IMG/VR virus record: IMGVR_UViG_3300030032_000362
Length of the DNA: 64,000 nt
Strand: one strand, 5' to 3'
Source: a virus
Lineage: Duplodnaviria; Heunggongvirae; Uroviricota; Caudoviricetes
The notes beneath the pieces were generated by a model. It saw only the letters and a program-made list of their open reading frames with translations, did not search any database and was not told the origin of the DNA. The number at the start of each line of letters is the position of its first letter. Position 1 is the stretch's first letter. The position numbers and the translations under genes are program-made. Below, piece by piece: positions 3,008 to 30,697 of the stretch.

Positions 3008-3029
3008 AATTGTGTCCTCCTAAAAATTT

Positions 3030-3344: not shown

Positions 3345-3377
3345 TTTGTGCCCTCCTTATTGTTATAAATGATATTA

Positions 3378-3390
3378 TTAATATGTCTGC
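3378..3390 (-). promoter_or_regulatory. Conserved promoter motif copy (TTAATATGTCTGC)
   Basis: Lies upstream of the 3030..3344 operon, immediately after the VirB4 terminator. Confidence 0.6.
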
Positions 3391-3400
3391 TGAACTATAG

Positions 3401-3432
3401 CGACAAAAAAAAGAAGCCCCGAAGGGCCTCTC
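3401..3432 (-). terminator. Rho-independent terminator downstream of the VirB4 gene
   Basis: Minus-strand reading GAGAGGCCCTTCGGGGCTTCTTTTTTTT. Confidence 0.6.
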
Positions 3433-9898: not shown

Positions 9899-10786
9899 CT
9901 ATTCTCCTTTTTCTTTTTTTAGAGTTTCAATGATTTCTTCAATTGTACTATATTTTTTCTTTGCGTGCATACGACTATACATTTTTTTTACATCAACACC
10001 ATAAGCATCGGCAATGGACTTAATTGTTGGATATTCTTTGTCATCCACAATATAATAATACGGTCTTTTTCCTAACATTCTTAAAACCACATCATCTAGA
10101 GATTTTTCCGGGTCTTTTATCAAATTTTCTTTTAACGTTGCCTCGGATAAATCATATTCTGCACATAACGCAGTTAAATTCTTCCATTTCTTACCTAAGC
10201 AATAAAAAGAAAAATCATATCTGGACTTTACCAGAGCAAACACGGCCTCTTCAATTGTCATGCCAGAATGCTTTACTCTGTATTGCAATGTTTGGCGAGA
10301 AATATTAAACACTTTAGATACCTCACCTAAACCATAATATTTTTTGCCTTGAATGGAATAAATTTCGGTTTTGTCCTTTTGGCGCACCGGAGTATTAATA
10401 ATTCTCTCAACGCTCCATTTACGGGTCAGCCTTTTTGTTACAAGGCTTTTTGAAAGCCCGGTCATTTTCACGATTTCCTCAATTGTAATAAATTTTCCTT
10501 TATAAGTTAAATCATATTTAAGAAAACTTTTTACAACTCCAGTAATTACTTTTTCTGATTTGCGCTTCTTTGTGTTAACCGCTTCTACCAACTGTTCATA
10601 ATTGATATTAAAATGGTCGGCCACTTCACGAAGCGTATTATAGCCTTTTCTAAAAGCTATCCATTTGTAAAAACTTAATGGCTGCTCATCCAAAGAAATT
10701 GGTGTTACTTTTGAATTTTTGTTCTGTCCCATCTGTTCAACATTGCATTGTTTATTAGACAATACAAATGGCCTTCCATCAGACAA
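9899..10786 (-). CDS. DNA-binding protein made of tandem helix-turn-helix-like repeats
   Basis: At least three roughly 45-aa repeats (e.g. ...GLSKSLVTKRLTRKWSVERII... and ...ISRQTLQYRVKHSGMTIEEAV...). They are homologous to 13766..14233. The annotated start is TTG; the true start may be the internal Met. Confidence 0.45.
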   Translation of the reverse strand: MSDGRPFVLSNKQCNVEQMGQNKNSKVTPISLDEQPLSFYKWIAFRKGYNTLREVADHFNINYEQLVEAVNTKKRKSEKVITGVVKSFLKYDLTYKGKFITIEEIVKMTGLSKSLVTKRLTRKWSVERIINTPVRQKDKTEIYSIQGKKYYGLGEVSKVFNISRQTLQYRVKHSGMTIEEAVFALVKSRYDFSFYCLGKKWKNLTALCAEYDLSEATLKENLIKDPEKSLDDVVLRMLGKRPYYYIVDDKEYPTIKSIADAYGVDVKKMYSRMHAKKKYSTIEEIIETLKKEKGE

Positions 10787-13741: not shown

Positions 13742-13785
13742 AAAAAGGCTTTGGGCTGAGATAGCTCAAAGCTTTTTGCTTTTAT
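13741..13785. terminator. Bidirectional terminator between convergent genes
   Basis: AAAAAAGGCTTTGGGCTGAGATAGCTCAAAGCTTTTTGCTTTT. It overlaps the 3' end of 13766..14233. Confidence 0.55.
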
Positions 13786-14233
13786 TATATTTCTCCATGT
13801 GAATTGCCTGCTCCGGAGTTAATCCTTTTTTCCTAACACGATATAAAAGTGTGCTAGTCGGCATATTATAATCTTTAGCAGCCTTTTGTAAACTATCATA
13901 CTCTTTCCCATCCACAGTAAAAGATTCCGTCTTTTCCATAGAGCGAATTGGTGTATCAATAATTCGACTTACTGGCCATTTTCGAGCAAGTCTTTTTTCT
14001 ATAATACTCTTTGATAGCCCTGACATATCCATAATTTGTTGTATCGTCAACACTTCTCCTTGATATGAGGAATCATACTTACGCATTTTCTTTATAATAC
14101 TGGTAAGATTTTTTTCGTTCTTTCGGGGAGTAATCTCGATATTTTTCTGTAATTCTTTTAAATTAAGTTTAAAATGTTCTGCTATTTGCTGTAAATCAGC
14201 ATATTCCTTATTATATACAATCCAATTTTCCAT
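13766..14233 (-). CDS. HTH-repeat DNA-binding protein (single-module paralog of 9899..10786)
   Basis: MDMSGLSKSIIEKRLARKWPVSRII and KEYDSLQKAAKDYNMPTSTLLYRVRKKGLTPEQA match the repeat units of 9899..10786. Confidence 0.45.
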   Translation of the reverse strand: MENWIVYNKEYADLQQIAEHFKLNLKELQKNIEITPRKNEKNLTSIIKKMRKYDSSYQGEVLTIQQIMDMSGLSKSIIEKRLARKWPVSRIIDTPIRSMEKTESFTVDGKEYDSLQKAAKDYNMPTSTLLYRVRKKGLTPEQAIHMEKYNKSKKL

Positions 14234-14688: not shown

Positions 14689-15045
14689 TTATTCAATTGG
14701 AACACTTAAATCTAAATAAAGTTTGTGAACGCTGCTTGGCTCTCCTTGCAAAACTCGCTGTAAATATGCTTTATATCCTATCATGTCTAGTTTTCCTGTA
14801 ACAAGCAATTTATCAATAACCATATCTAAAATAGCTAATGTATTTTCATCATATTGATGCGGCTTTTCAGAAAATGTAAAACAGCCACCTTTACCAAGAA
14901 CTTTATATTTTTTATCATATGGTGCATCAGAAAATTCATGCTGTAAAGTCGCTCGTTTTGATATTAACTCTCTTGTTTGCAAATCCACAACTTCCCATTG
15001 ACGAGGTCTAAAGATATAATATTCACCTAAAGAATTTTTTCCCAA
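14689..15045 (-). CDS. Hypothetical protein (118 aa), translationally coupled to the transglutaminase-like gene
   Basis: Overlaps 15027..15977 by 19 nt. Confidence 0.4.
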   Translation of the reverse strand: MGKNSLGEYYIFRPRQWEVVDLQTRELISKRATLQHEFSDAPYDKKYKVLGKGGCFTFSEKPHQYDENTLAILDMVIDKLLVTGKLDMIGYKAYLQRVLQGEPSSVHKLYLDLSVPIE

Positions 15046-15977
15046 AAGCTAGGAATGACAAATTGAGCAAGAAAATATTTTCCGTTTTCTTGATAAATTA
15101 CCGGCTTTGATACACCATTTTTTTCTATCCAGCAAGGGAAATTTCTTTTTGCTATATTAGGATATTCATTAAATATCTCTTTCTTTGATGCAGAAGTGGT
15201 ATCATAGCATAATTTTTCTATAGTATATTTATTTTGTATCGTCTCTTCGCCCTGTAAAAAATGAAGAAGCTTCTTTTTCTTTCCTAATTCAAATGGAGTT
15301 GCGTCCAATAAATACCATTTGCCATTGATTTGAACTTCATTCCACATATGGTCTTCGCTACAAACAATTACACATGGGATTTCATAATGATTACACAAAA
15401 CTTTAATTAAACTCGCTATCCCGGCGCAGCAGCCTTCTTTATGAGATAGAACATATCCAACATTTTGAGTTTCGCCTATGTCCTTTGCTTTATCAATATA
15501 ACTCCAACTTCGATATACAAATGTTCTTAATATAAATACAGTAATAGCGTAAATTTTGTATTGCGCCGGATAAGGTTCAATATATTTCAATTTTTCAAGT
15601 ATTTCATTATAACTTCTTTTGTATTCGAGTGCATCAGCATTAAAAATAACAGGATTATATAATTCATCTACATGCACTTCTATCATATATTTTCCATCTT
15701 CTTGTTTACTTAAAAGTCCTTGAAATTCTGCCCAAAAAATTTCAGGATGTTCAAGGGACAAAGTAATGCTCGCCCGATAAAGATTTTCTATTGTCATACA
15801 ATCCTTGCTCACAAGTATAATTGATTCTGTATTACATACCACATTTTCTATATCAAAGCAATATGTATGATATAATGTTGTATAAATTTGTTTCTCAATT
15901 TTTGTTAATTGCTTATAATAAAAATTGTTTGGTTCTTCTAAAACTGATTCCTTTAATTCTACATATTTGCTTGACAT
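15027..15977 (-). CDS. Cytoplasmic transglutaminase-like cysteine-protease-fold protein
   Basis: Cys-His-Asp core: HKEGCCAGIASLIKVLCNHYEIPCVIVCSEDHMWNEVQINGKWYLLDAT. No signal peptide. The whole protein is homologous to residues about 880-1180 of the 1312-aa surface protein. Confidence 0.6.
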   Translation of the reverse strand: MSSKYVELKESVLEEPNNFYYKQLTKIEKQIYTTLYHTYCFDIENVVCNTESIILVSKDCMTIENLYRASITLSLEHPEIFWAEFQGLLSKQEDGKYMIEVHVDELYNPVIFNADALEYKRSYNEILEKLKYIEPYPAQYKIYAITVFILRTFVYRSWSYIDKAKDIGETQNVGYVLSHKEGCCAGIASLIKVLCNHYEIPCVIVCSEDHMWNEVQINGKWYLLDATPFELGKKKKLLHFLQGEETIQNKYTIEKLCYDTTSASKKEIFNEYPNIAKRNFPCWIEKNGVSKPVIYQENGKYFLAQFVIPSFWEKIL

Positions 15978-16212: not shown

Positions 16213-16629
16213 TTAAGCAGATTCTTCTTCCGCATTGCTTTCAGGTAATTCATCTATGTCATCTTGTAGTCCCATACACAAACCCATATATAATCTTGCA
16301 TCAACATCATCTAATACTTCTTTTGGTAATTTTCCTGCGCACCAAACTCCTTGTCTTTTAAATAATGATTTCAAAATAGTATATGGTTGTGCGCATATTA
16401 TGTATGATTCTTTCTCTAATTTCGTTGTTCCTAACTCAATAGTAACATTTGTTTCAAAATCTTTGCTTTCCGGGTCTGACGTTATCAGAAGAACTGTAAC
16501 GGCATCATAATTTTCAAAAATTGCACCCTCTTGTAATACTACTACAAATTTCCTTTTCCCCCTTGGAAAGTTTACATCAAAGGTATAAGGAAAATGTATA
16601 TAATAAATTTGCCCTCTTTCAAAATTCAT
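16213..16629 (-). CDS. mazF: MazF/PemK-family type II toxin (mRNA interferase fold)
   Basis: RGQIYYIHFPY...GKRKFVVVLQ...VLLITSDPESKDFE...SYIICAQPYTILKSLFKR follows the PemK/MazF pattern (RGdi--v-f-...RPvvVls...vvp-Ts...). Confidence 0.55.
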   Translation of the reverse strand: MNFERGQIYYIHFPYTFDVNFPRGKRKFVVVLQEGAIFENYDAVTVLLITSDPESKDFETNVTIELGTTKLEKESYIICAQPYTILKSLFKRQGVWCAGKLPKEVLDDVDARLYMGLCMGLQDDIDELPESNAEEESA

Positions 16630-16645
16630 AAATTAACCTTCTTTC

Positions 16646-16897
16646 TCACTTAATAGTTTTTTGCTGATGGATATGTAAGAGTTTTGTGTTTTCTGAACAT
16701 TTTTTGATATCATGTTCATTTGGTAAATGTCTTAAATTTTCATCCTTTAACACTTTACTGGCTCTTGTTTTTAATAATTCCATTTTTAATTTTATATTAC
16801 TTTGGGCTAAAACAGCTTGCATACCATCATCTCCTTTCGTTTTATCTTTTTTTCCCTTAAATAATTTAAACATAGAAAAACTCCTTTCATATTGCAA
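16646..16897 (-). CDS. Putative antitoxin partner of MazF (small, basic)
   Basis: Small ORF immediately upstream of the toxin with a 16-bp gap. The real start is probably an internal Met (MFKLFKGKKDK). Confidence 0.3.
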   Translation of the reverse strand: MQYERSFSMFKLFKGKKDKTKGDDGMQAVLAQSNIKLKMELLKTRASKVLKDENLRHLPNEHDIKKCSENTKLLHIHQQKTIK

Positions 16898-17036: not shown

Positions 17037-20000
17037 TCATTTCTTCACTTTCATTGTTTTCACAAATCCGGTCTTTTTCTTCTGAATCAGCTTTTTGTAC
17101 TTCTTCAACTGTTTCTTTGGCACCTTGAATGTAGCTTTCTTATAAATTCCTTTGAAAGCATTCTTTCCGATGCTCTTCAGCTTTGCTGCCTTAATAGTTA
17201 CTTTCTTCAGCTTCTTGCAGCCTTTGAAAGCATTTTTCGCAATCGAAGTTACGGTATACGTCTTTTTGCCAATCTTTACTTTATTCAAGATGGTAACGCT
17301 TTTCACTTTCTTCGATGTGCATTTCTTGACAACCGCATACTTTCCGGAAATAGCATATACCACTTTTCCTTTCGTTGCAGAAGTTACGGTTACTGCTTTT
17401 GGCTGCGCAGGTATAGGTTTTACGTTTGGCTGCGTAGGCATAGGCTTTACGTTTGGCTGCGGAACTGTTGGCTCTACATAATCATCATCAGACAACACCG
17501 GAACAGGATAGTCTGTTTCAATTTTATGATGTTCGTCTGTGACCGATTTTGCGCCCTTTAAAAAGTAATCATATCGAATCGGTTCTGTGTCATCCCATGT
17601 TGCATCTAGCAAATACCATTTTCCGTCAACCTGAATCTCATTCCACATATGGTCTACGCTGGACACGTTAATGCAAGGAATTTCATAATAATCGCATAAA
17701 ACTTTTATCATTTTTGCGTAAGATACGCAACATCCTTCTCCGTGTGTCATCATATAACCAATAGAACGAGTTTCATCCGTGCATACAGCGCCTAAAATAT
17801 TGGTTGAATTTCGATAACTATATGTGTTTACTACATAATCATGAATTAATTGTACTTTCCCTTTGATTGATGCTTGCTGAATTCCGGATTTGTCTAATGA
17901 TGAAATAATTCCATTAAAAAATCCTTTATATTCAAGAGCGTCTGCCTTAAAAGCAGTTTCATTATAAGCAGCTAAAGGCAAAACACCACTGGCATATCTT
18001 CCATCTACTTCTTTTACTCCGGAACCGTAAAAATAGAAAATCCAAAATATGGATGGATTATCCAAATATACGGCATAACTTGCATGCATCACATTTTTAT
18101 TTGTGATTTTATCAGTAGCGTAAAACATAATTTTTTTCATTTTACACTCGCCTTTATCCATGTCAAATTTATAATAATTATAAATTGTCGTATAGATTTT
18201 CTTCTCAACATCTGTGAGCTGGTTGTAATACCATTGATTGCTTTCCATCGGCTTTTCAGCATAAGGAATTTCTGTTTCAGTCCCATCAAGAGCCATTATT
18301 TGATTCGTTGGTCGTATCGTGTTGTTTGGATTCCACAAAGCCTTTAAATGGTAATCTGTAGCATTTTGAGGATTAATAATATCAACATAACCGTTTAGCT
18401 CCTCGCAGTACCATCCGGCAAAGGAATAGCCCTCTTTTGTCATGTATCTTGGTAAATCAATCGGGTCATCCTTATACTTATACTCTTTCGGGATTTCTGT
18501 TCCCTTCGGAAGAGTACCTCCATTTAAGTCAACAGAAATACGATAGGTTGTTCCTTCATATACCGCTTCCAAGGTCAAAGGACCGGAGGTATCTGCATCA
18601 ATTTTAGTAATAATCTTGTTGTTCAAGGTATTACGCCATCCGCAGACATAAAATCCCTTTCTCTTTACATTGGTCGGCAGGTCAAATTCATCACCGTAGG
18701 AGTAAGTTTTCGGGTATTCTCCAACAAACTCACCGCCAAGAGTATCATAAGTGATGCCGTAAATGCGGTTTGCTGCTTCCACATAGACTTTTAAGTTGTT
18801 CTTCAATGCATAATTGGACGGGAAAGGAATGGTTACGGTCGAATTCTTGTCTTCACAAGTTCCGGCACTTACCTCTGTTCCGTCTGCTGTTTCTACACGG
18901 TAGCTCTGAATATAACGGTTTGTATTGCACTTCATAATCAATGAATTGATTTTTTCGCCATACTCATACGTTACTTCGTTTGTTTTGTCCAGCTCACGGT
19001 CGCCAAGAAAAGCGGTTGTGTCACTGTACTTTGTACTGAATGTTACCGATGGCTTTTTATACCATGCGGCATAAAGCGTGGTGTCTTTTGCAATATCCCA
19101 CTTATTCTTTCCGGAACTGTAGTTGATTACAGCCGTTTCACGTTCCGTTACCGGAATCGTTTTTGTCCGGTCTGTTACCCATCCGGCAAAGTCATAAAAT
19201 TTGGAATACAGATATGGGAAGTCTTCCCATGCATCATAAGTAAACTCGTACTCTGTTTTCGACTGTGAATTCGTCACAAACGTTACTTTGTACGTGTTTG
19301 GTTTCCAAATAGCATATACAATTACAGTATCTACCTTTCCACTCAAATCGTCTACTACATCTCCATCTTTTGCATACGACCATCCGGTAAAGGAATAGCC
19401 GGTCTTCTCAAAACGGCATGTTGGATTGGCTTTTGTGTCATAGGTTACATCCAAGTCATCCATACTGCCGGAAGTGGCACCGTTCCCATCGAATACTACT
19501 TTGTGGGTTCTTGCCGTCCAATGTGCATAGAGCGTGTGGTTTTCCGCGCGGGTCATCTGTGTATCTTCCGTTACTTTTGTTCCACCTTTTTTTGCCGTGT
19601 ACCATCCGTCAAAGGTGTAACCGTATCGGGATGCCGTTGTTAAGGAATAATCCTTATCGAACGTGTTTGGCAATTCAGCGTCTTTCACTTCTCCTCCGTT
19701 AGCATCAAAAGATACTGTATAGGTGATTGGTTCCAGAATTGCCTTGAAAATAGAGTTGCAATCTACCGTCATGGTAGTTTCCGGTTCTAATTTCTCCGGC
19801 TCTCCTACTGCTTCTCCGTCTGCATTCATTGAATACTTTTCCCAACGAATCAGCTTATACCCTACGCTCGGATAAAAGTTTTCCGGCAGATTTGGTGAAA
19901 AAACTTCCTGATAGGAATGTTCTTCGTTCTGCACGTTGGTATTCTGATTGTTTCGGAAAGAAATCTGATAGACTTCCGGTGTCCATTTGGCATAGACATC

Positions 20001-20975
20001 TGTTCCATCCGGAACTTTCAATAAAACGCCGTCTTTGTCGAAAATCTGAGTGTTTTTCTCAAAATATCCTTCAAATACATAGTGGTCTTTCTTTGGTGGG
20101 TAGATGTTGCCGAAACTACGGCTTTTCTCATCCTCTTTACCCTCAAACACATATACCGAGTCATATTTCAGACCACTGCCCCCGCGGTTTACTTCACCGC
20201 CATCCGGAGCATCTGCATGAAGCGTAACTTCTTTTGCGGCCGCACCAATGTAAGGGAACTTGTCCGGGTCTTTTAAGATGGCCGGGATATTGGTTTTGTA
20301 CTTCGTTTTGTAAACAGTTTTTAATGTGTTTTCCGGAGTAGTTACTGGTCCGCGGAATACGAAACCGCTAGACGTATTATCTGTTCCGTCCAATGTAATA
20401 TTTGGAGAGTTGCAATAGACAAGATTTTGGTTAAAGCAGTTTTGTCCAATTTTTTCTAAAGAATCTGGCAAATAAATAGTTACATCTCCTCTATATCCTT
20501 CATCCTTGCTTCCATAACCATCCTGACTAAACGCCCAATCATTAACCGTTTTCAGCCCCGTACAAGCCGTGGCGTCAACGACAATGCCTGAACTGGTGAC
20601 GTTGAAGGAGCCGAGAAAAAACGAATCCTTGTTTTTCGCGTCTGCATCTCCTAATGATTCCACCTTGTGATAGGCGATGATTTTTCCATCTTCATTACAT
20701 TCCGGTACTTTATCCGGAATAATGATGTCTTTGGTGATTTTTTTTGAGAATTTTCCGTCCTGATATACTCCAATTATATGAACATTACGAGCTGCGCTGC
20801 TTTCATCGCCCGATACTGCATCATATTCCCAGATAATATCTCCCTGTTCTGTCCCTGCGTACCCACTCACCGCATTCTGTTTTCCCTCTTTAATATAACA
20901 AGAACCGACTAACAGGCCGGCAACAAACAATGTGCAGATAGCAAAGGATATAATATTTCTTTTTCTTGCTTTCAT
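17037..20975 (-). CDS. Giant secreted surface protein (1312 aa) with Listeria-Bacteroides repeats, a transglutaminase-like domain, a Pro-rich linker and a Lys-rich LRR-like C-terminal tail
   Basis: Signal peptide MKARKRNIISFAICTLFVAGLLVGSCY. Several GY-F-GW...LYA-W repeats. Cys-His-Asp core THGEGCCVSYAKMIKVLCDYYEIPCINVSSVDHMWNEIQVDGKWYLLDAT. Linker PTVPQPNVKPMPTQPNVKPIPAQP. The last roughly 110 aa are about 65% identical to the tail of the 1896-aa protein. Confidence 0.75.
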   Translation of the reverse strand: MKARKRNIISFAICTLFVAGLLVGSCYIKEGKQNAVSGYAGTEQGDIIWEYDAVSGDESSAARNVHIIGVYQDGKFSKKITKDIIIPDKVPECNEDGKIIAYHKVESLGDADAKNKDSFFLGSFNVTSSGIVVDATACTGLKTVNDWAFSQDGYGSKDEGYRGDVTIYLPDSLEKIGQNCFNQNLVYCNSPNITLDGTDNTSSGFVFRGPVTTPENTLKTVYKTKYKTNIPAILKDPDKFPYIGAAAKEVTLHADAPDGGEVNRGGSGLKYDSVYVFEGKEDEKSRSFGNIYPPKKDHYVFEGYFEKNTQIFDKDGVLLKVPDGTDVYAKWTPEVYQISFRNNQNTNVQNEEHSYQEVFSPNLPENFYPSVGYKLIRWEKYSMNADGEAVGEPEKLEPETTMTVDCNSIFKAILEPITYTVSFDANGGEVKDAELPNTFDKDYSLTTASRYGYTFDGWYTAKKGGTKVTEDTQMTRAENHTLYAHWTARTHKVVFDGNGATSGSMDDLDVTYDTKANPTCRFEKTGYSFTGWSYAKDGDVVDDLSGKVDTVIVYAIWKPNTYKVTFVTNSQSKTEYEFTYDAWEDFPYLYSKFYDFAGWVTDRTKTIPVTERETAVINYSSGKNKWDIAKDTTLYAAWYKKPSVTFSTKYSDTTAFLGDRELDKTNEVTYEYGEKINSLIMKCNTNRYIQSYRVETADGTEVSAGTCEDKNSTVTIPFPSNYALKNNLKVYVEAANRIYGITYDTLGGEFVGEYPKTYSYGDEFDLPTNVKRKGFYVCGWRNTLNNKIITKIDADTSGPLTLEAVYEGTTYRISVDLNGGTLPKGTEIPKEYKYKDDPIDLPRYMTKEGYSFAGWYCEELNGYVDIINPQNATDYHLKALWNPNNTIRPTNQIMALDGTETEIPYAEKPMESNQWYYNQLTDVEKKIYTTIYNYYKFDMDKGECKMKKIMFYATDKITNKNVMHASYAVYLDNPSIFWIFYFYGSGVKEVDGRYASGVLPLAAYNETAFKADALEYKGFFNGIISSLDKSGIQQASIKGKVQLIHDYVVNTYSYRNSTNILGAVCTDETRSIGYMMTHGEGCCVSYAKMIKVLCDYYEIPCINVSSVDHMWNEIQVDGKWYLLDATWDDTEPIRYDYFLKGAKSVTDEHHKIETDYPVPVLSDDDYVEPTVPQPNVKPMPTQPNVKPIPAQPKAVTVTSATKGKVVYAISGKYAVVKKCTSKKVKSVTILNKVKIGKKTYTVTSIAKNAFKGCKKLKKVTIKAAKLKSIGKNAFKGIYKKATFKVPKKQLKKYKKLIQKKKTGFVKTMKVKK

Positions 20976-21053
20976 AAATAATCTCCTTTCTTAAAGCGAT
21001 TCAGTTGTACGGCAGTTAGTTACTACCGGACTCCTGTTGTTTTTAGTATAGTA

Positions 21054-21067
21054 TTAATATGTCTGTT
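21054..21067 (-). promoter_or_regulatory. Conserved promoter motif copy
   Basis: TTAATATGTCTGTT upstream of the 17037..20975 gene. Confidence 0.6.
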
Positions 21068-21127
21068 AAGTAATTGATACAACTTAACATATGAAGGAGA
21101 AAGAGATAGCCCTCTATGAGATAGGGA

Positions 21128-21688
21128 CTATCCCTGTACGGTATCTTTTAAACTTATTTCAGATGGCTCCTTTATAGTATCTTTTATGTTTTGCCATTTA
21201 TCTGATATATCATCTGTTTGTTCTTCTTCTAATTTTTCATTAACATTATGTAGCATTGGATACATTCTAATATCATATTTTTGAATATTTTTCACAATAG
21301 CAACTGCGCTTTCATCTTCTTGTGGATTAAATAAGTACTTTGCTATAATTTCAGGCAACTTCAATAACGAAATTATAATTGTCCCAAAAGATGACACAAG
21401 CGGTGTTAACGTTGCGGTAATCATATTAAATGAAACATGATTTGATTTTATCATATTTTGTATCATACTGATTGTGTATGTAATTGTATAATGAAATGTA
21501 TACACCAATCCACTTAATATAAACATAACAATAGCAAAAAACAACATCTTCATTATAAACTTTGCCCATGTATTTCGCCGTATTCCATTTACATAATTGT
21601 CAATTAATTTTGTATATCCATCAGAACGAGCTTCATGTCCTTCTTTCTTTGAATCTTTAATCGTTATCATCGCAAAGTACTTCTCCAA
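21128..21688 (-). CDS. Membrane protein (186 aa)
   Basis: Hydrophobic segments (FFAIVMFILSGLVYTF; LTPLVSSFGTIIISLL). Overlaps the upstream peptidase gene by about 30 nt. Confidence 0.4.
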   Translation of the reverse strand: MEKYFAMITIKDSKKEGHEARSDGYTKLIDNYVNGIRRNTWAKFIMKMLFFAIVMFILSGLVYTFHYTITYTISMIQNMIKSNHVSFNMITATLTPLVSSFGTIIISLLKLPEIIAKYLFNPQEDESAVAIVKNIQKYDIRMYPMLHNVNEKLEEEQTDDISDKWQNIKDTIKEPSEISLKDTVQG

Positions 21689-22358
21689 TTCTTTTTATTA
21701 TAGATGATTTTTTTACCTTAAAGTATCTTGCAAGATATTCAATTACAAAAATTTGGCTTCCATCCGGATTATATCTTTTATCACAACAAGCATCTATGTA
21801 TTGTTTCATAAATAATTCACGTGGCATAAGCAATTCAGCTGCGAAACGGTCTGCCCGTATTTCTTTTTCAGAACAATGATTGTTTTTGGGATAAGTTTCC
21901 GTAAATAAATGATTTTTATTCCGATATTTAGGATTTCCCAAACAATCAAATAAATAATGACCAAGTTCATGAGCTGCTACAAAACGTTGATGTTCAAATG
22001 GTTCATTTTTATCTGTTGCAATTACTTTGTCATAATCAAGACATTTTTCTGTTGTTCCGTGAACATAAATTACACCAGATATTTTTTTTCTTAATTTTGA
22101 CACACCAAACACTTTTAAACCAAAAGCCTCTATTATTGGTTCAATTGGCGTTTCTCCACGATAATTATAACCAAGACATTTTGATATATCTAATATCTCA
22201 TGTGCAATTTCAGCCGCCTGCTTTGGCGTAAGATTTTGCAAAGACTCGCCTGGTTCTTTCGTGAGACGATTAATTAAATTTTCAAAGTCCTTTCGTGCTT
22301 TCATTGTCTTATCCTTTTCTTTTTGGTTTATCTTATTAAATCTGATTATATTTCCCAT
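21657..22358 (-). CDS. ImmA/IrrE-family zinc metallopeptidase (DUF955/COG2856)
   Basis: HEXXH motif AHELGHYLFDCLG. The start was moved to ATG 22356-22358 (MGNIIRF), which has an AAAGGGGG RBS; the track ORF extends to 22442. Confidence 0.55.
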   Translation of the reverse strand: MGNIIRFNKINQKEKDKTMKARKDFENLINRLTKEPGESLQNLTPKQAAEIAHEILDISKCLGYNYRGETPIEPIIEAFGLKVFGVSKLRKKISGVIYVHGTTEKCLDYDKVIATDKNEPFEHQRFVAAHELGHYLFDCLGNPKYRNKNHLFTETYPKNNHCSEKEIRADRFAAELLMPRELFMKQYIDACCDKRYNPDGSQIFVIEYLARYFKVKKSSIIKRIGEVLCDDND

Positions 22359-22569
22359 AGTACAACCCCCTTTTCTGTTACTGTAGTGTATCAGATAAGT
22401 TGTAGCTTGTCCCATGAAATTTGTCGAATAGATATTATTCATCTATTTGACACTTTTATTATAACAAAAAACTAATTATTTGACAAGTTTTGCAAATTAT
22501 ATTTTTGTCAATCATGTGAATGATTGAAAGTCACTGTATTATCTTTATAATAAAATCTTTCCCCATCTG

Positions 22570-23133
22570 TCATCTATTATATACCTCTGAAATACGCCTT
22601 TTAGCCGCAAGAAGAGGCACCCTAAAAATTTGTGATAGCATACTAATTATCATTTCCGGGTCACCAATTCGTTTAAACAATCCTTCATAAACATTTTTAA
22701 AATGTTCAGCAGGCATCAAGATGCAAGTAGCAAAATAATCCGCTTCTTGTTCTTCTTCTGATTTATCCTTATGAAAATCCACATGCAAAAAAGCAGTTTT
22801 TTTATTTATTCTGTTTTCATCATAATGTAATGCAAAATGTCCGAGTTCGTGTGCAACAATAAATCTTTGTTGGTAATCATCAAGGTTATCTTCAAATAAA
22901 ATTTCTTTTATTATAGTATCATTTTCTTTTCGGATTATAATTCCTCCATCTACATTTTCTTCATGAAAAGTAGCAGATGAGACTTCGAATCCTTTAGCTC
23001 TCGCTAAAATAATAGTATCAATAATTTCATTATCCATTCCCTGTCTAAACTTTTCCGCTTTTTGTTCAATTTCTTTTTTTCGTTCTAGTGTTAAGCGCAT
23101 ATATACCATACCCTCTATATTTGTTTTTTTCAT
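22570..23133 (-). CDS. ImmA/IrrE-family zinc metallopeptidase, second copy
   Basis: HEXXH motif VAHELGHFALHYDENR. 187 aa. Confidence 0.55.
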   Translation of the reverse strand: MKKTNIEGMVYMRLTLERKKEIEQKAEKFRQGMDNEIIDTIILARAKGFEVSSATFHEENVDGGIIIRKENDTIIKEILFEDNLDDYQQRFIVAHELGHFALHYDENRINKKTAFLHVDFHKDKSEEEQEADYFATCILMPAEHFKNVYEGLFKRIGDPEMIISMLSQIFRVPLLAAKRRISEVYNR

Positions 23134-23282
23134 GTAACTATCTCCTATTTTATCAATATATATTTCCTCTTGTCAACTATTATTATGCTCAAATAATAAG
23201 AAAATCCAATACACTATAATAGTAGTATTGTTTTCTAGCACCATATTGTTACAAAAGAATTGTTAAAATTACATTTCCCTTT

Positions 23283-23296
23283 TTAATATGTCTGTT
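23283..23296 (-). promoter_or_regulatory. Conserved promoter motif copy
   Basis: TTAATATGTCTGTT upstream of 22570..23133. Confidence 0.55.
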
Positions 23297-23603
23297 TGGC
23301 ATTAATTTAAATGCTCTATTGACAAAATTAGTGTTTAATCTCTATAATTTATGTATATTCTTAAGAAAGGAACGATATACAGTTGAACGATACATCAAAA
23401 TATGTCACATTATGTCACAACTTAATAGCAGAATACTTAGAAGACGATACCCCTAAGACGTTTAAGAATTATAAGCTGATAGTGAACTACTCGGAAATAA
23501 GTTACCGAGCTACTTGCTTCAACCACTGCTGCTTGGCTAATACGAAACAGTATATTAAAAAAAATAAGAGGGAGCATTTGCCCCCTCTTTTCTATTCCAG
23601 ATT

Positions 23604-26600
23604 TCATTTTCTGACTTTCATCGTCTTAACGAATCCGGTTTTCTTTGTGAACAGTTTCTTGTATTTCTTCAAATACTTCTTAGGCGCTTTAATCTTAGCC
23701 TTTTTACTGATACCCTTAATCGCGTTCTTTCCAATCTTTTTCAAGGAAACACTCTTAACGGTAATCGTTTTCAGTTTCTTGCAGCCCTTAAAGGCGTTTT
23801 TAGCGATTGCGGTTACTTTGTACTTTTTGCCGTTAATAGTTACTGTTTTCTGAATTGTTACCTTTTTCAGCTTTTTACTTGTAACCTTTTTAACGAAAGC
23901 ACTTTTACCGCTAACCTGGTATACTACCTTGCCTTTTGTTACCGTCTTAGCTTTTGTAGCAATCGTTTTTGATGGATTAAGCGATGGCGTCTGAATCGGT
24001 GATGGGTCTGAGCTCGGGCTAGGTGTTGGGTTTGGTTCCGGTCTAGGTGTTGGATTTGGCACCGGACTAGGAACAACAGGGTCAACAACATTACCCTTTG
24101 TTTTCCATACAGCATATACATCTGCGCCATTCACGCCCATAGTAACCTCTGTTACAATATCGCCATCTGTACCATCAGGCTCTTCCGCCCAACCAACGAA
24201 AGTATAACCAACACGTTCCGGCATTCGCATATTCAACACTGCTTTAGAACCCCAAATAAAGGTATCTTCGCTTTCCGTAAAGTCCGGTGCTCCTGCATAA
24301 TTCTGATGGAATCTTACTTTACCGTAGTCGCGGTCTAAGATAATCGTAAATGCAGCACCATCTTCTACTTTGTGTTTCAAAACAGAATCCGGATTTACAT
24401 GATAACCGTCCGGTACATGGAAGTCATAATTTGCTTCCAGTTTGAGGTCAGTGCCCTGTACAGCAGAGCCGGTAGCAACCGTTACTTCATATGTTTCGTC
24501 TGCTTTTTGAGTCTTTGTGGTGATTGTGTAACTTGTATCACCGGCAGTACCCCATACAGCATATAAAGTAATGCTTTCCTCTAAATCCGAAATCACATCA
24601 CCGGCTTTGTATTCCGGTTCTGTTGCCCCCTGAATGGTGGACCAACCAAGGAATACTCTTCCATCACGAGTTGTCTCGAATCCCGGCAAAGTAATTGTAT
24701 GACCCTCATAAACTGTCAACGTAGTAGCATCTGTTGTTCCACCATTGCCATTAAAAGCAATTTGATTTCCCTTTTGGTCATCGTCAACAGCCCAGATTGC
24801 ATACAAGTGAATCGTTTCTCCGGCAGATGCCAGATTGGTCGCTTTGTATTTATCATAATACTCAGCATTTGTTGCTTTTGCATCGCGGTTCCATCCAAGG
24901 AATTTGTAACCGGTACGTGTGAACGCGTTGGCGCTTAACTCCTGCTTAATATCAGAAGATAAAGTCTGTACATCCATCGTTCCGTTACCACCGTTTGCAT
25001 GATATGTGATAAAGTAATTTGCCGGTTTCCAAACAGCATACAAAGTTACTGTCTGATTCTTGCCCGCAAGGTCTTTTACGGTATCTTTGTCCGTATACAT
25101 TGCTTTCGTAGCATTTCTGTCGGTAGACCAACCGAGGAACTGATAACCTTTTCGGCCAAAAGCATTTTTCGTCAAATTGACGTTTGCTTTTGTATCAAAG
25201 GCATCTGCTTTCATAACGCCTTCTGTTGCTCCGTTGCCATTATAAGCAACTGTATACTGGTCATGTTTCCAAACAGCATACAAAGTAAGATTCATGGTTC
25301 CGTCCCATATTTTTGTAGACTTTCCGTTTTCGTCAAAGTATTGAACTCCGCCATTTTCGGAACTGAAATATCCTACAAAACTATAATCTTCTTTTTCCGG
25401 AATTACAATCGGAGGAATCGGTTTGCCGTTTACAACGTAAACTTTTTCATCTCCGTTAATACCGCCCATTGTGTTCAATTGAACAACATAAGCCGGTTTT
25501 CCGTAAGAAGTACAGGACTTATTCAAGTACGTCTGCGAATAAATATCCGCTGTAGAGTTGGTGTATCCTTTGATTTCTGCTTCATTCGGAACTAATGGAC
25601 CGGCCGGGAATTTACAATTTGGATTTTCTACACCCAAAACGTTAAGCATAGAATCTGCAAAAGCATTTTCCCCAAAGCTGATTAAGCTATCGCCGGTTGT
25701 GAACTCAGTAAGAGCGGTTCCGGCAAAAGCATTTTCACCAATTGTTTCAAACTGGTCCGTATCTTTTAAGGTTGTAAGAGAACTACAACCGTTAAATGCA
25801 TTGTTCGGGACATTCATTACTCCGCCAAAGGAAACACTGACTAAGCTTTCCGCTTCTTCAAATGCTCCTTCGCCCAATGTAATCCCCGTCTTTGGCAATT
25901 CAATTGCGGTAAGTCCAGAATTTGCAAATGCGCTTTCTCCGATTTCAGCCAAAATAGCTTCTTCATCGAACGAAATTGTTGTTAAATTCTTGCAGCCTTT
26001 AAAAGCGCCTGCATTGATTTTCTTTAACAACGGTCCAACGGTTACTTCAACAAGATGAGCCGGAGAATCCTGTACATAAGAATACTCTTCTGTCTTGTCT
26101 TTTTCATACCCAACCATAAGAGAAATCGGATATTCATGTGCCATAGCGAAGTCGTATGCTTTACTCTTGTAATAGCATTTAACAACTGTGCTGTTCGGGA
26201 ACACGGCGCTGATTTCATCATAAGTAAGGTTTGTACTCATTCCTTCAAAAGTTACTTCATTGAGAGTGAAACATCCATTAAATGCTCCTTTTCCAACTAA
26301 GACAACAGATTCCGGAATGGAAACTTCCGTTACGTTTGCCTTTGCAAAAGCAAATGCTCCAATATTAGATAAAACACTTTGGTCTTCAAATTCAATGGTC
26401 TCTAAAGCGGCAATACTGGAGAAAGCACGTTCTCCGATTGACTGTACTGTATTTGGAATTTCCAACTCAGCAATCTTTGTGTTATTGAATGCATAAGAAC
26501 CAATTGTCTGAACACGGCCCAGTGTAATATCTTTTAAGTTTACGCAGCTATCAAAAGCATTGTTTCCAATACTTGTGATATTAACCGGAATATCAAACGA

Positions 26601-29294
26601 TTCCATAGTTACTTCATCTTTGAAGAAATCATCCGGAATCGTTGTGAGAATTTCATAAGATTCACGGTTTGCGTTCTGGCAATAGCTTGCCACGCTTGAC
26701 CCCTGAAATCCAACCAATTTCTCTGTTGTATTCGGAATGGAATCTTTCTCCAAAGTAGTTCCCGGATTTTTCACCGTTACAGAATGTAAGTTTGTGTCAG
26801 CGAAAGCGTTTTTCTCAACCGTTTCTACCGAATACGGAATTGCTACATTTTTAACTGTGCAGCCGGCAAAAGCATTTGCCTGAATTGTTTCGCATACTTT
26901 GCTGATTTCCGGATTATCACTGTGCTTTTTCGGGCAGTAAACCAAAATGGATTTATCTTTATTGTAAAGCAATCCACCTTCTGATGCATAATCAGCATCT
27001 TTTGAGTTTACCGTAATGGATTCCAAGTTTGCAAATTTACTAAAATTCATGTCCGCAATATTATCTACATCAACGGCAAATGCAATTTTTTTAGCGTTTG
27101 CACATTCTGCATAAATAATAGAGCGAGTATTTTCTGAATTTTTGTAAATTGTTACGGTATCATCCGAAGTGTTGTAATCGTAAATATGAGTATAATTGGC
27201 TACATAATTGCGATTTCCAACAGAACCTTTTGTAATTACGACATCTTTTTCCGGAGTGTCACCGTTGCTGCCGGTCCATCCGTCAAATACATATCCCTGC
27301 TTTGTTGGTGTATTCAGATGAATATCATCATCCTCTACTGTATAATTGCTAACATTTGCAGCAGTTCCACCATTCAAATCATAAATGATTGAATAAGTGT
27401 TTTTGTCATAGACAGCAGACAATGATTTTGTTTCATTGATGGTATATGTTCCATTAAATCCATCCCAAGAAGAGAATGTATAACCTTTCTTTTCCGGAAC
27501 AGGCAAATTAATGGTTGTTCCACCGACTTTTACAATTGAAAAATCAGTTTCATAAATAGCTCCATCATAAGTTACTTTTCCACCATTTGAAGAGAGTTTT
27601 GTTTGATAACAAACAATTTTTTTAGCAGCGGATACATTTCCTGCGCTGTCTTTAGCGAAAAAGTAATAAGTTCCTGCAGCAGAAATTGTTTTATCTACCG
27701 AAAATGATTTTGTGGAAGCCACTTTGGTATAAGCAGAACTTACTGGACTAGCCGAAGTTCCAAAATAATAAGAAGTAACTCCTACATTATCACTAGCCTC
27801 TAACGTCACAGACTGATTTTTGCCCGCCGTAATATTAGAAGTAATACTTCCTTCCGGAGCAGTTTTATCCACAATTGCAAATATTTTTGTAACTGAACCG
27901 GAATAATTTCCTGTACCATTTATTACGGCAACGGCAGTTCCAACATTTGTATTGCTGCTGTAAGATACTGTATAGTCTCGTCCAAGCACCAAGGCCTTTT
28001 TAGTATAAGGATTTTTTGCCGTTACGCTATTGGTGATTGCACTTCCGATGTAAGGAACAGACGAATTCATCAAAGCAACCGAACAATCTGTTATCGGGCA
28101 TTTATCAACCATTAAAGTCCCCTCTATGAGGTTACTGTTTTTGGTTGATTTAATTGCCTTTGTATAATTGCCGGCATCCAAAACATCATCTTTTGTGTAG
28201 CCGGATAAGCCACTACCCATTGCATACCGTAAAGACTGATTTGCATTTGGCGCAACGAAATAATATCCTTTAGATGTTTGTTTCGTGTAATTGTAGCCAA
28301 CAAACCCACTTTCTGTCATAGCAGAATCAAGAGCGTCTGAAACAGTCTGTCCATAAGTAATAGATGATGCAATTGACTGATAATCACCATTTGCCTTCTT
28401 GTAAGATACATTTTTGGTAGTATCTAATGCTGCCTTGTAAATATTTAATGAAGCAGAGTTCGATGCATCAAGATAATTAAGGCAACATCCTGTTTCTGCA
28501 GAAGTATAGATTTTATCTTTTGCTGCGCTGTTTTCTCCATAGACAGTAAGCCATAACTTATCACTTTCGTCACAATCTGAACCCGTCTTATTAAAGGTCT
28601 TGTCATCTAACGAAATACTTGATGCAATGTTTCCAAACAGCAAATAACCATGTAAACTTGTGCAGTTATCAAATGCTGCTTGTAAATCACAAACATCATG
28701 ATTTGCGTCTCCCATTGGACACCAAATATGCTCTAATTTTCCACAATTCTGAAAAATACCTTTTGCATACTCTACCGGCGGAAGACGAAATACTTCAACC
28801 AAATTTACACAATTAGCAAAAGCATATTCCAAAACGCCATCTCCGTCCAATTTCATGCCGGAATTCAGCCCACCAATAACATACTTGATTTTCTTTTTAG
28901 CAGCAGTTGACATGTTAGTCAAACAATTGCCCATAACATAATAACCGGCATCATCCATTTTCGCAGACGGACGGTTATTTTCCATCTTGTAAAAAGCAAA
29001 AACGCCATTTTTATCAATGCCCCAATAGGTAATTAATGCGTTATTCACATAAGAATAACCAGCGGTTCCACTTTCAACAATGGAGTTGACATCAAAAGAG
29101 ACATTCGAAAGATTGCGTTTTTCTGCGCTTTCTTCATATTCGGCAACAGACCCGGTTGCTACACTTTGCACAGCGGCTTTGCTTCGGATTGAACCGATAT
29201 TACCGCTTAAAAGCATTGCTAAAGCCAAAACTCCGGCTACCGAACGTTTAAAGATTTTTCTTTTTCTCATGAAAATAAAATCTCTCCTTTCCAA
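23604..29294 (-). CDS. Giant secreted surface protein (1896 aa) with BspA-type leucine-rich repeats, Listeria-Bacteroides repeats, Ig-like regions, a Pro-rich linker and a Lys-rich LRR-like C-terminal tail
   Basis: Signal peptide (KRSVAGVLALAMLLSGNIGSIRSKAA). Many NAF-GC--L--V-IP-SV--IG--AF units. GY-F-GW...LYAVW repeats. Linker PVVPSPVPNPTPRPEPNPTPSPSSDPSP. The tail KGKVVYQVSGKSAFVKK...GFVKTMKVRK is shared with 17037..20975. Confidence 0.8.
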   Translation of the reverse strand: MERRDFIFMRKRKIFKRSVAGVLALAMLLSGNIGSIRSKAAVQSVATGSVAEYEESAEKRNLSNVSFDVNSIVESGTAGYSYVNNALITYWGIDKNGVFAFYKMENNRPSAKMDDAGYYVMGNCLTNMSTAAKKKIKYVIGGLNSGMKLDGDGVLEYAFANCVNLVEVFRLPPVEYAKGIFQNCGKLEHIWCPMGDANHDVCDLQAAFDNCTSLHGYLLFGNIASSISLDDKTFNKTGSDCDESDKLWLTVYGENSAAKDKIYTSAETGCCLNYLDASNSASLNIYKAALDTTKNVSYKKANGDYQSIASSITYGQTVSDALDSAMTESGFVGYNYTKQTSKGYYFVAPNANQSLRYAMGSGLSGYTKDDVLDAGNYTKAIKSTKNSNLIEGTLMVDKCPITDCSVALMNSSVPYIGSAITNSVTAKNPYTKKALVLGRDYTVSYSSNTNVGTAVAVINGTGNYSGSVTKIFAIVDKTAPEGSITSNITAGKNQSVTLEASDNVGVTSYYFGTSASPVSSAYTKVASTKSFSVDKTISAAGTYYFFAKDSAGNVSAAKKIVCYQTKLSSNGGKVTYDGAIYETDFSIVKVGGTTINLPVPEKKGYTFSSWDGFNGTYTINETKSLSAVYDKNTYSIIYDLNGGTAANVSNYTVEDDDIHLNTPTKQGYVFDGWTGSNGDTPEKDVVITKGSVGNRNYVANYTHIYDYNTSDDTVTIYKNSENTRSIIYAECANAKKIAFAVDVDNIADMNFSKFANLESITVNSKDADYASEGGLLYNKDKSILVYCPKKHSDNPEISKVCETIQANAFAGCTVKNVAIPYSVETVEKNAFADTNLHSVTVKNPGTTLEKDSIPNTTEKLVGFQGSSVASYCQNANRESYEILTTIPDDFFKDEVTMESFDIPVNITSIGNNAFDSCVNLKDITLGRVQTIGSYAFNNTKIAELEIPNTVQSIGERAFSSIAALETIEFEDQSVLSNIGAFAFAKANVTEVSIPESVVLVGKGAFNGCFTLNEVTFEGMSTNLTYDEISAVFPNSTVVKCYYKSKAYDFAMAHEYPISLMVGYEKDKTEEYSYVQDSPAHLVEVTVGPLLKKINAGAFKGCKNLTTISFDEEAILAEIGESAFANSGLTAIELPKTGITLGEGAFEEAESLVSVSFGGVMNVPNNAFNGCSSLTTLKDTDQFETIGENAFAGTALTEFTTGDSLISFGENAFADSMLNVLGVENPNCKFPAGPLVPNEAEIKGYTNSTADIYSQTYLNKSCTSYGKPAYVVQLNTMGGINGDEKVYVVNGKPIPPIVIPEKEDYSFVGYFSSENGGVQYFDENGKSTKIWDGTMNLTLYAVWKHDQYTVAYNGNGATEGVMKADAFDTKANVNLTKNAFGRKGYQFLGWSTDRNATKAMYTDKDTVKDLAGKNQTVTLYAVWKPANYFITYHANGGNGTMDVQTLSSDIKQELSANAFTRTGYKFLGWNRDAKATNAEYYDKYKATNLASAGETIHLYAIWAVDDDQKGNQIAFNGNGGTTDATTLTVYEGHTITLPGFETTRDGRVFLGWSTIQGATEPEYKAGDVISDLEESITLYAVWGTAGDTSYTITTKTQKADETYEVTVATGSAVQGTDLKLEANYDFHVPDGYHVNPDSVLKHKVEDGAAFTIILDRDYGKVRFHQNYAGAPDFTESEDTFIWGSKAVLNMRMPERVGYTFVGWAEEPDGTDGDIVTEVTMGVNGADVYAVWKTKGNVVDPVVPSPVPNPTPRPEPNPTPSPSSDPSPIQTPSLNPSKTIATKAKTVTKGKVVYQVSGKSAFVKKVTSKKLKKVTIQKTVTINGKKYKVTAIAKNAFKGCKKLKTITVKSVSLKKIGKNAIKGISKKAKIKAPKKYLKKYKKLFTKKTGFVKTMKVRK

Positions 29295-29415: not shown

Positions 29416-30402
29416 TTATAATTCTATATCATCATCTTGCGGTATTATCTTATTTTCCAATTCAATATTTTTTAAATATTCTGGATAAATCATTTTATCA
29501 AAACGAGTTTCTACACTTTCCATTATATATTGTTTTCTTTCTTTTGAACATATCTCCCAATCTCCTACCTTCTCTGGAATAGCAGAAATAAATTGTCTAA
29601 TATCTGGCAATTTCTCTTTTATAATAGGCGACAAACGCTTTATTGCTTCCTTTAACTCTAAATCATCATATTGAATCATTTTTTTTGCCGAAAGTATATG
29701 CCCATCTACTTCATAAGCAGTACGAGACCCAATATATAAATCACTTTTATTTTTATCATGTATTATTTTATTTATCCTTTCGTCACTCGATTTATTAGAA
29801 AAAGAATTGCCATTATCATATACCGGAGCAACATTATATGTTTTATTCTTTTCATTATATAAGAGTCCCCAATTGCCGTTATTTCTATCTGTATTATCAA
29901 TAAGTATATCAACAACCACCATATTCCAAAATCTTGAAATTGCGTCAGGACATTTTTTTACAATAGGATTATATTGTAAATGCAATAATAATTCTTTGAG
30001 ATTGACTCTATCTCCTGTTCCAGAATAATGCATTTGTTCATCTAATGTTTTTGACAATTCTTTATTTGCTGCATTTTTTAAGCTTCTCATTTCCATAAGA
30101 GAGCCTCTTGTTTTGCAAAAATCTTTACAAGCAACTACTACTTTATTGTTTCTAACTCCAAGTGCCGTTTCGTGAACAGGAATACCTAACATATCATATA
30201 TATGGCTTCCAACAAATTCAGATAATGGAGAGGTTGTATAAGACATGCCTAAAGGTGTTTTAAACGCTCGTTCTGTTTTAGGATATTTTATAATCCAATA
30301 ACTATTTCCCATCATAATACCATCTTTGTCCCCAGCCATGCCAGCATAAGAACCATGCCGGTCACTATATTCACAATTTTCAAAATTATAAATATTAATC
30401 AT
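29416..30402 (-). CDS. HipA-like serine/threonine kinase domain protein
   Basis: VVVDILIDNTDRNNGNWGLL and NVAPVYDNGNSF resemble the HipA C-terminal catalytic-loop and activation segments (D-H-KN-S...aP-YD). Confidence 0.45.
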   Translation of the reverse strand: MINIYNFENCEYSDRHGSYAGMAGDKDGIMMGNSYWIIKYPKTERAFKTPLGMSYTTSPLSEFVGSHIYDMLGIPVHETALGVRNNKVVVACKDFCKTRGSLMEMRSLKNAANKELSKTLDEQMHYSGTGDRVNLKELLLHLQYNPIVKKCPDAISRFWNMVVVDILIDNTDRNNGNWGLLYNEKNKTYNVAPVYDNGNSFSNKSSDERINKIIHDKNKSDLYIGSRTAYEVDGHILSAKKMIQYDDLELKEAIKRLSPIIKEKLPDIRQFISAIPEKVGDWEICSKERKQYIMESVETRFDKMIYPEYLKNIELENKIIPQDDDIEL

Positions 30403-30406
30403 ATTA

Positions 30407-30697
30407 TCAATCCTTTCCGTTCACCGAATATTTCCATGTAACAATATCCCATTGTTCCATTGTCATTACTCCACTGGCAACATAATTTTTACACAAAACA
30501 TCTATTGCATCTGCAACACACATGTACTCGATATTATTTTTTCTATCCAGCTCTTCCGCTTCTTCTATTGTGTTTTGCAACAATTTAGGAAGTGGGAAAT
30601 CTATTACCACATCTTCACGTATAAAATTAAATGTTTCTTTTTTTTCCATAATTATTTTCCTCCTCATAAAAACACATAGTACGCAGAGGCCCACCAT
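30407..30697 (-). CDS. Small hypothetical protein upstream of the HipA-like gene (possible partner)
   Basis: 4-bp gap to the kinase gene. The likely start is the internal MEKKETF. No HTH recognised. Confidence 0.35.
   Translation of the reverse strand: MVGLCVLCVFMRRKIIMEKKETFNFIREDVVIDFPLPKLLQNTIEEAEELDRKNNIEYMCVADAIDVLCKNYVASGVMTMEQWDIVTWKYSVNGKD

Follow-up and report, generated by a model that had tools for sequence, protein, structure and literature searches.

The M78 proteases ImmA (ICEBs1), IrrE (Deinococcus) and CapP (cyclic oligonucleotide-based antiphage signalling system, CBASS) act by cleaving a repressor with a helix-turn-helix (HTH) domain, and are typically activated by a signal. 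Small membrane proteins encoded beside M78 genes in the lysogeny modules of temperate phages are often superinfection exclusion (Sie) proteins. The locus analysed here lies at positions 21128-23133 of the IMG/VR virus record IMGVR_UViG_3300030032_000362, where two M78 peptidase genes, named pepA and pepB, are accompanied by the gene of a two-pass membrane protein, named 2TM-B. "The window" designates the whole stretch of 64,000 nucleotides that was analysed, and all coordinates refer to it. The window is part of a Lachnospiraceae-type conjugative element of a low-GC gut Firmicute.

Another role of the M78 domain is described in toxin-antitoxin (TA) systems. The ImmA-protease domain is the hub antitoxin (node D25) of RosmerTA, where it pairs with diverse toxins, and the pair of Gordonia phage Kita is a membrane-depolarising, anti-phage toxin-antitoxin system in which the M78 protein neutralises the toxin (Ernits et al. 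2023, PMC10440598). The antitoxin gene rmrA is essential in transposon sequencing (Tn-seq) where a RosmerTA system is present (bioRxiv 10.64898/2025.12.09.693261). Panacea is a hyperpromiscuous antitoxin domain which also pairs with membrane toxins, and membrane-depolarising PanT toxins are known (PMC10440598).

The pair pepB/2TM-B is likely to be a bicistronic toxin-antitoxin or abortive-infection module of the RosmerTA type, with the peptidase as antitoxin. The type of system is already known; what is new is the toxin family, its tight link to HTH-less M78 proteins in gut Clostridia, and the set of alleles found at this site. That no XRE partner is present is then explained, since the peptidases would be the antitoxin side of RosmerTA-like modules and not regulators of the ImmA/ImmR type.

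In the genome of phage Kita, gp32 encodes a 178-aa HTH-less M78 protein and gp33 a 119-aa protein with two C-terminal transmembrane (TM) helices, the two genes overlapping by 4 nt. They are taken to be the published RmrA_D25 and RmrT_D5 on the basis of gene position, order and domain content. Both loci have a stand-alone HTH-less M78 gene followed by an overlapping gene whose product crosses the membrane twice; both are carried by mobile elements and lie outside a lysogeny switch, and gp32 is homologous to pepB (hhalign probability 97.8%, E 1e-12). They differ in the toxin, which has 119 aa in Kita and 180 aa here with no detectable homology, the conserved N-terminal helix and the PEIIAKYLFN motif being features of the window protein; in the host (Actinobacteria versus Clostridia); in the additional orphan M78 gene of the window; and in that the system described here is known from sequence alone. 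Canonical RosmerTA or XRE-COG2856 (spr1629-type) cassettes share with the present locus the M78 protein as antitoxin side, the two-gene organisation and the variability of the toxin (PMC10440598), but their antitoxins are longer (about 360-400 aa), carrying an HTH at the N-terminus and an extension at the C-terminus, whereas pepA and pepB have no HTH. The NCBIfam model for spr1629 matches the M78 part at 42 bits (equivalog cut-off 335). An N-terminal HTH is not a strict requirement of RosmerTA, since the validated Kita RmrA (178 aa) is also devoid of it.

The conserved peptidase and membrane protein pair

Both peptidases matched Peptidase_M78 (PF06114) well above the cut-off of 22 bits: pepA (22570-23133, minus strand, 187 aa, ImmA/IrrE-type) with 61.5 bits and an E-value of 9e-17, and pepB (21657-22358, minus strand, 233 aa), an HTH-less zinc peptidase like pepA, with 56.4 bits and 3e-15. 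They lie head to tail, carry HEXXH and a downstream Glu in an E..A..FA..LLMP motif, and share 32% identity over 105 aa in the catalytic half, so that the two tandem metallopeptidases of the preliminary description were recovered. The pepB start proposed there (ATG 22358) also held, with a GGGGG ribosome-binding site 7 nt upstream and an N-terminus MGxII that is kept in homologues; a longer open reading frame (ORF) from ATG 22442 exists (21657-22442, minus strand), but its use is unlikely. The membrane protein gene said to overlap a peptidase gene is 2TM-B (21128-21670, minus strand; 180 aa from ATG), whose first 14 nt are shared with the end of pepB; translation might also begin at a TTG at 21688. 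The two genes are probably translationally coupled. One variant touches the pepB reading frame: an A8 homopolymer lies at 22082-22089, and is A7 in the metagenome copy of locus L004, so that pepB ends prematurely at codon 95 while 2TM-B remains intact. Slip-strand variation or an error of assembly could account for the difference.

In the structure predicted for pepB by AlphaFold2 (pLDDT 90, pTM 0.87), a single long helix at the N-terminus (residues 8-32) precedes the M78 core. The top PDB matches of this model with Foldseek were IrrE (3dte/3dti) and PprI (8sln) (probability 1.00, E 2e-4), as expected of an IrrE-like fold. PADLOC models of RmrA matched the M78 part of both proteins (down to 5e-13 for pepA, 6e-9 for pepB), which align only at profile positions ~120-290. 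The subfamily of pepB is tight and comprises more than 60 clusters, with members of 195-250 aa that consist of the M78 domain alone. Degeneration of HEXXH in orthologues was looked for and is not the case in this subfamily: H130, E131, H134 and E166, as well as RADRFAAELLMP, are invariant in 35/35 aligned sequences. Searches of phages by tblastn with pepB gave three weak M78 matches only.

2TM-B is a putative membrane toxin with two hydrophobic helices, a basic stretch ahead of TM1 and an acidic C-terminal tail, and for these last two features it is probably oriented N-in/C-in. Two segments are conserved in family alignments, an N-terminal helix (H..YT..L..Y) and a juxtamembrane segment KLPEIIAKYLFNxxED, which in 2TM-B contains the motif KLPEIIAKYLFNPQED right after TM2; both segments should face the cytoplasm. 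The AlphaFold2 model is a mere three-helix hairpin (pLDDT 70), for which Foldseek found nothing below E = 1 among viral structures, and tblastn of the 2TM protein against phages gave no match. The family is nevertheless large: a profile search in 1.84 billion representatives retrieved 1332 proteins at E<=1e-3 (1036 at E<=1e-10), all of 140-250 aa, and the family comprises more than 1300 clusters at 50% identity, chiefly from gut Clostridia. None of Pfam, PHROGs, PADLOC and NCBIfam contains a model for it. SpoIIGA, ExcA, SLATT_1 and "Cyclase" were rejected as family assignments, the matches being below threshold and driven by hydrophobicity; for SLATT, only the paralogue 2TM-A (see below) matched NCBIfam SLATT_1 (E 0.054, 13 bits for a cut-off of 41), and no Pfam SLATT model matched at E<=1.

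Loci were gathered from GTDB genomes, IMG/VR and metagenomes with the 2TM profile, and completed by look-ups of exact proteins; their ORFs were scored with locally built hidden Markov models (HMMs), and the loci are cited below by number (L). An M78 gene lies immediately upstream and on the same strand for 116 of the 138 2TM-family ORFs (129 sequences). When full-length 2TM proteins were clustered at 90% identity, 36/40 clusters were linked to M78 only. Between the M78 stop and the 2TM start, 30 non-redundant pairs have spacings of -70 to +40 nt. The conserved unit is therefore the pair, an HTH-less M78 gene then an overlapping gene for a 2TM protein. Of 66 distinct M78 proteins paired with 2TM genes, 62 keep HEXXH. 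In the distant lineage of L135 and L136, an intact 2TM gene is preceded by an overlapping gene for an M78-like protein in which HELGH has become CALGL (hhalign probability 64%, E 6.5e-5), and which looks like a lineage of pseudo-protease antitoxins; two other partners have lost a single ligand. Dead sites occur in a few distant partners, L135 and 2-3 of the 66 distinct sequences. The L135 pair (2331-3747 of that locus; also in L136) adjoins an integrase gene and a Fic gene.

Hosts of the pair include Lachnospiraceae, Oscillospiraceae, Butyrivibrio, Roseburia and Phascolarctobacterium. The contexts of the pair are mostly mobile and vary greatly. They include an adhesin-flanked hotspot similar to that of the window (L021, L042), and settings that have nothing in common with the window element: the tail modules of P2-like prophages, where it occupies a moron position between tape-measure and baseplate genes beside Bro-N/ANT genes (L051, L056), an island bounded by an integrase (L135), and plain chromosomal sites beside genes for ribosomal proteins or sugar metabolism (L029, L041). 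In a Pfam scan of 31 proteins flanking non-redundant pairs, HTH_3 was found in one, the others being mixed (integrase, resolvase, SSB, Bro-N, HicA, amidase, TnpB, epimerase). Lack of an XRE partner thus characterises the family as a whole and is no peculiarity of the window.

In the window itself, no HTH or XRE gene adjoins pepA or pepB: the flanks are adhesin genes and no intergenic ORF of 20 aa or more resembles an HTH, in agreement with the preliminary description, and HTH_3 was found in 0/65 other ORFs of the 64-kb window. The HTH which might have been fused to the N-terminus of pepB did not appear, this region being a single long helix; Pfam detected no fused HTH in either peptidase. These results bear on the regulatory relay that had been proposed to act on HTH proteins of the element and on a promoter motif. 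In an anti-repressor relay of the ImmA type, one or both peptidases would cleave an HTH repressor of the element (e.g. an HTH-like protein at 9899-10786 or 13766-14233) and thereby trigger transfer, the membrane protein being accessory. The protease family and fold, and the location on a conjugative element, are indeed those of ImmA-ImmR (ICEBs1), IrrE-DdrO and CapP-CapH, and the best PADLOC match of both peptidases is capP (4e-22 for pepA, 1e-17 for pepB). Moreover, a perfect inverted repeat TTGACAA-N18-TTGTCAA (22480-22511), found once in the window for 0.04 expected by chance, overlaps the -35 region of the pepB promoter and is a possible operator for some regulator. However, each of these known systems has an adjacent HTH repressor as substrate, whereas the conserved neighbour here is a membrane protein; no XRE or ImmR-like gene is adjacent or detectable in the window; the same pair is found where no lifecycle switch is near, within prophage tail modules and at chromosomal sites; and the 2TM protein is the invariant partner, for which Panacea can stand in for M78. 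We regard this relay as very improbable. The other suggestion, an unusual protease-based module, comes closer, since what is conserved beside the peptidase is the membrane protein, but the module is not unprecedented, the RosmerTA of Kita having the same architecture. The earlier interpretation as a whole is partly supported.

Probable toxin and antitoxin sides of the pair

Three lines of evidence, namely a partner swap, asymmetric decay and the literature cited above, point to the 2TM protein as the toxin side. The swap is observed in L040 and L123, where a 2TM member with the motif KIPEIIAKYLF is preceded by an overlapping gene for a SocA/Panacea protein (Pfam 2e-12) with no M78 gene, so that M78 is replaceable by Panacea in one 2TM lineage. 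These relatives have the same gene order and overlap as PanTA (Panacea/DUF4065; Kurata 2022, Ernits 2023), from which the window locus differs in that its partner is M78. The conservation of the PEIIAKYLF motif in the Panacea-paired lineage argues that the motif belongs to the function of the toxin and is not a protease site.

Decay affects the 2TM gene while an M78 gene with intact HEXXH is kept. This is the case in the window, where a relic of a second 2TM gene is present (next section), in L047-49, which compared with L050 have an independent internal deletion of 574 bp that leaves the head and tail codons of the 2TM gene and an intact M78 gene, in L008, where the 2TM gene is truncated, and in L076/77, L118, L119 and L125, where it is frameshifted. 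In L117, the gene of an IS200-family transposase lies directly upstream of a 77-aa 2TM fragment, and no M78 gene was detected on the stretch that carries this fragment. The converse, an intact 2TM gene with no intact M78 gene beside it, is rare (three loci, discussed below).

In the mechanism that we propose, 2TM-B would be a toxin that, by analogy, depolarises or permeabilises the membrane, and the cytoplasmic, HTH-less M78 protein encoded just upstream (pepB) would neutralise it, as suggested by the genomic organisation, be it by binding or by cleavage. The M78 protein may reach the N-terminal helix and the juxtamembrane segment of the 2TM protein from the cytoplasm. More speculatively, it may double as a sensor which frees the toxin upon phage infection or loss of the element. 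Located in an accessory hotspot rich in TA genes, the module would contribute to the stability of the element and/or protect the host from phages. The other TA-like pairs of the window that adjoin the locus (with MazF and with a HipA-like kinase) were counted in favour of the TA reading.

Several observations weigh against this assignment. Four loci (L110, L111, L114, L122) have a short M78 gene, a long M78 gene and a 2TM gene in one operon (e.g. 2651-4393 of L111), with protein identities of 37-62%; two M78 genes are stably held there for one 2TM gene, and the second need not be debris. Three loci hold an intact 2TM gene without an adjacent intact M78 gene (L073, L100, L004). An antitoxin that acts by binding only would have no need of the catalytic site, yet this site is invariant in the close subfamily; on the other hand, a few distant partners have dead sites (above). 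Finally, the 2TM protein matches neither an RmrT model of PADLOC nor the RmrT_D5 of Kita, the comparison with the latter being not significant (hhalign probability 0.5%, E 0.12, with a stretch of 16 residues after TM2 aligned). With regard to the intact 2TM genes, an insertion sequence (IS) element is inserted directly upstream of the 2TM gene in L073 and L100 and probably silences it, and L004, where pepB is broken, is a weak counter-example because it rests on the single-base change in the A8 tract in one metagenome assembly. The short M78 proteins of the four operons are 37-47% identical to each other and all keep HEXXH; this lineage is an independent and stable tandem-peptidase architecture, unrelated to the window, and an extra M78 gene can therefore be maintained in the long term.

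A variant of the TA assignment, which we consider unlikely, makes the M78 protein an enzymatic antitoxin that continuously clips the toxin at the juxtamembrane segment, orphan M78 proteins being kept as anti-addiction immunity against related toxins carried by competing elements. It would explain the near-invariant catalytic site and the conserved PEIIAKYLFN segment, as well as the stable operons with two M78 genes and one 2TM gene and the wide distribution of the orphan pepA allele; the retention of the motif beside Panacea, discussed above, argues against a protease site. If true, it would add a protease-based mode of neutralisation to TA biology.

The same catalytic conservation is compatible with the reverse polarity, in which the 2TM protein would be an inactive pro-effector cleaved by an M78 protein that an infection or DNA-damage signal switches on, as for CapP and IrrE, the M78 protein being an activator of membrane damage in the manner of gasdermins. 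The extreme conservation of the motif after TM2, which could be a processing or gating site, the presence of a PprI complex with single-stranded DNA among the fold matches of pepB, and the mobile and prophage-moron contexts, which fit a defence function, are consistent with such a protease-activated pore. If M78 served for activation only, however, its loss would do no harm, and 2TM genes without a partner would be expected as often as M78 genes without one, but the opposite is seen; Panacea, which is not a protease, replaces M78 with the motif retained; some partners have dead active sites beside intact 2TM genes; and M78 neutralises the toxin in the validated Kita system (PMC10440598). An activated pore is accordingly judged improbable.

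The membrane protein might instead be an entry, surface or superinfection exclusion protein, with the M78 protein as its processing or regulatory protease. The pair is found on conjugative elements and prophages, and the paralogue 2TM-A has a weak NCBIfam match to the IncI1 exclusion protein ExcA (NF033891; E 7e-5). With 22 bits, this match of 2TM-A only is far below the curated cut-off of 100 and covers hydrophobic helices. Exclusion proteins need no antitoxin-like partner, whereas almost every 2TM gene is coupled to M78 or Panacea; some pairs are located at chromosomal sites that are not mobile; and the repeated internal deletions of 2TM genes suggest that they have a cost. We give hardly any credence to exclusion.

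The toxin-antitoxin assignment turns a puzzling annotation, "ImmA without ImmR", into a testable one. If the family is toxic and defensive, many proteins annotated as "ImmA/IrrE family metallo-endopeptidase" on gut mobile elements would be antitoxins and not anti-repressors, and the family would be a compact system in which to study the control of a membrane toxin by M78, which is also a question for RosmerTA.

The relic between the peptidases and the alleles of the hotspot

Between pepA and pepB, a 21-codon in-frame ORF (22508-22573, minus strand) encodes MTDGERFY followed by YKDNTVTFNHSHD. It is composed of the first 8 and the last ~13 codons of a 178-aa gene that is the partner of pepA in sister alleles, and keeps the ATGA overlap with the pepA stop. 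By blastn of the window against L053 and L012, homology spans pepA and 21 nt of the partner gene, and resumes at the last ~40 nt of the latter. The own 2TM gene of pepA (2TM-A) was thus lost through an internal in-frame deletion, and the "two peptidases in tandem" are therefore one pair and the survivor of a second pair. Both peptidase genes are intact, but their arrangement arose by deletion of the toxin gene of the second pair.

Sister loci display the other states of the site. In L012, L013 and L016, the order is pepA', a 2TM gene of 173 aa that overlaps it, a gene of 82 aa, and then pepB with 2TM-B; pepA with an overlapping 178-aa 2TM gene is found alone in L052-L055, and the pepB pair alone in L019 and L020. 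The 173-aa and 178-aa proteins are paralogues of 2TM-B which share its topology and the motif after TM2. A conjugative element that is widespread in the human gut offers here, at a single hotspot, a natural series of alleles with two pairs, with one pair, or with one pair and an orphan.

pepA is most likely the orphan antitoxin of that paralogous module, the second one of this hotspot. Its active site is intact, a sigma-70-like promoter of its own precedes the gene, the exact allele is widespread, and its dN/dS (ratio of non-synonymous to synonymous substitution rates) relative to the paired orthologue is 0.33. As a more speculative possibility, orphan pepA may still provide cross-protection or an anti-addiction effect.

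The region upstream of pepA is also reduced. A gene of 238 aa, divergent from pepA, is intact in L012, L014, L027 and L052; the window retains its 5' relic (23383-23480, plus strand; the first ~30 codons), the body of ~610 bp being deleted. The 82-aa and 238-aa proteins of the sister alleles had no match in any profile library searched, and as far as HMMs tell they are not hidden HTH partners.

Candidate promoters and neighbouring genes

Sigma-70-like sites were located by their match to the consensus. A candidate pepA promoter (TTGACA-18-TAAAAT; 23147-23176, minus strand) and a candidate promoter for pepB/2TM-B (TTGTCA-17-TATAAT; 22458-22486, minus strand) both have an extended -10 TG and are consensus matches only, and the divergent 238-aa gene has a perfect consensus (TTGACA-18-TATAAT; 23319-23348, plus strand). 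The count of sigma-70-like sites in the region is not above that of shuffled sequences. No terminator-like site was found between pepA and pepB, and a scan of 20800-23800 with Rfam gave nothing close to any gathering score.

The genes of the window are almost all on the minus strand and include those for a VirB4-like ATPase (3433-5853), a VirD4/TraG-type coupling protein (30781-33069), proteins of the PrgI and Maff2 families, a MazF toxin and a HipA-like kinase. The locus with pepA, pepB and 2TM-B occupies a gap of 2.6 kb which separates two giant genes for surface proteins with LRR_5/Flg_new domains (adhesins; 17037-20975 and 23604-29294). Identical proteins were found on many human-gut metagenome contigs of up to 446 kb, and the locus of Clostridium sp. 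AF37-5 is 98% identical; neither GenBank phages nor PLSDB plasmids gave a blastn match to the locus.

The two giant proteins have near-identical basic C-terminal regions of ~110 aa (encoded at 17037-17400 and 23604-23970, minus strand), and such direct repeats on both sides of the cassette site could drive the exchange of alleles at the hotspot. Each giant gene is adjoined by a TA-like pair: a MazF/PemK toxin gene with an upstream ORF of 83 aa (16213-16897, minus strand), and a HipA_C-like kinase gene with an upstream ORF of 96 aa (29416-30697, minus strand). The MazF pair is missing in some sister loci, or swapped for a group II intron reverse transcriptase (L012).

A transglutaminase-like gene (14689-15045 and 15027-15977, minus strand) is split into ORFs of 316 and 118 aa in the window and in L001. 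It is a single ORF of 429 aa in most sister loci (L002, L003, L005 and others), and the split looks like a frameshift or a pseudogene. The bulk Pfam scan of the 65 other ORFs of the window also identified RadC, HD/HD_5, a CdiA-CT RNase A-like toxin domain, PrgI, Maff2, YodL and glucosaminidase domains.

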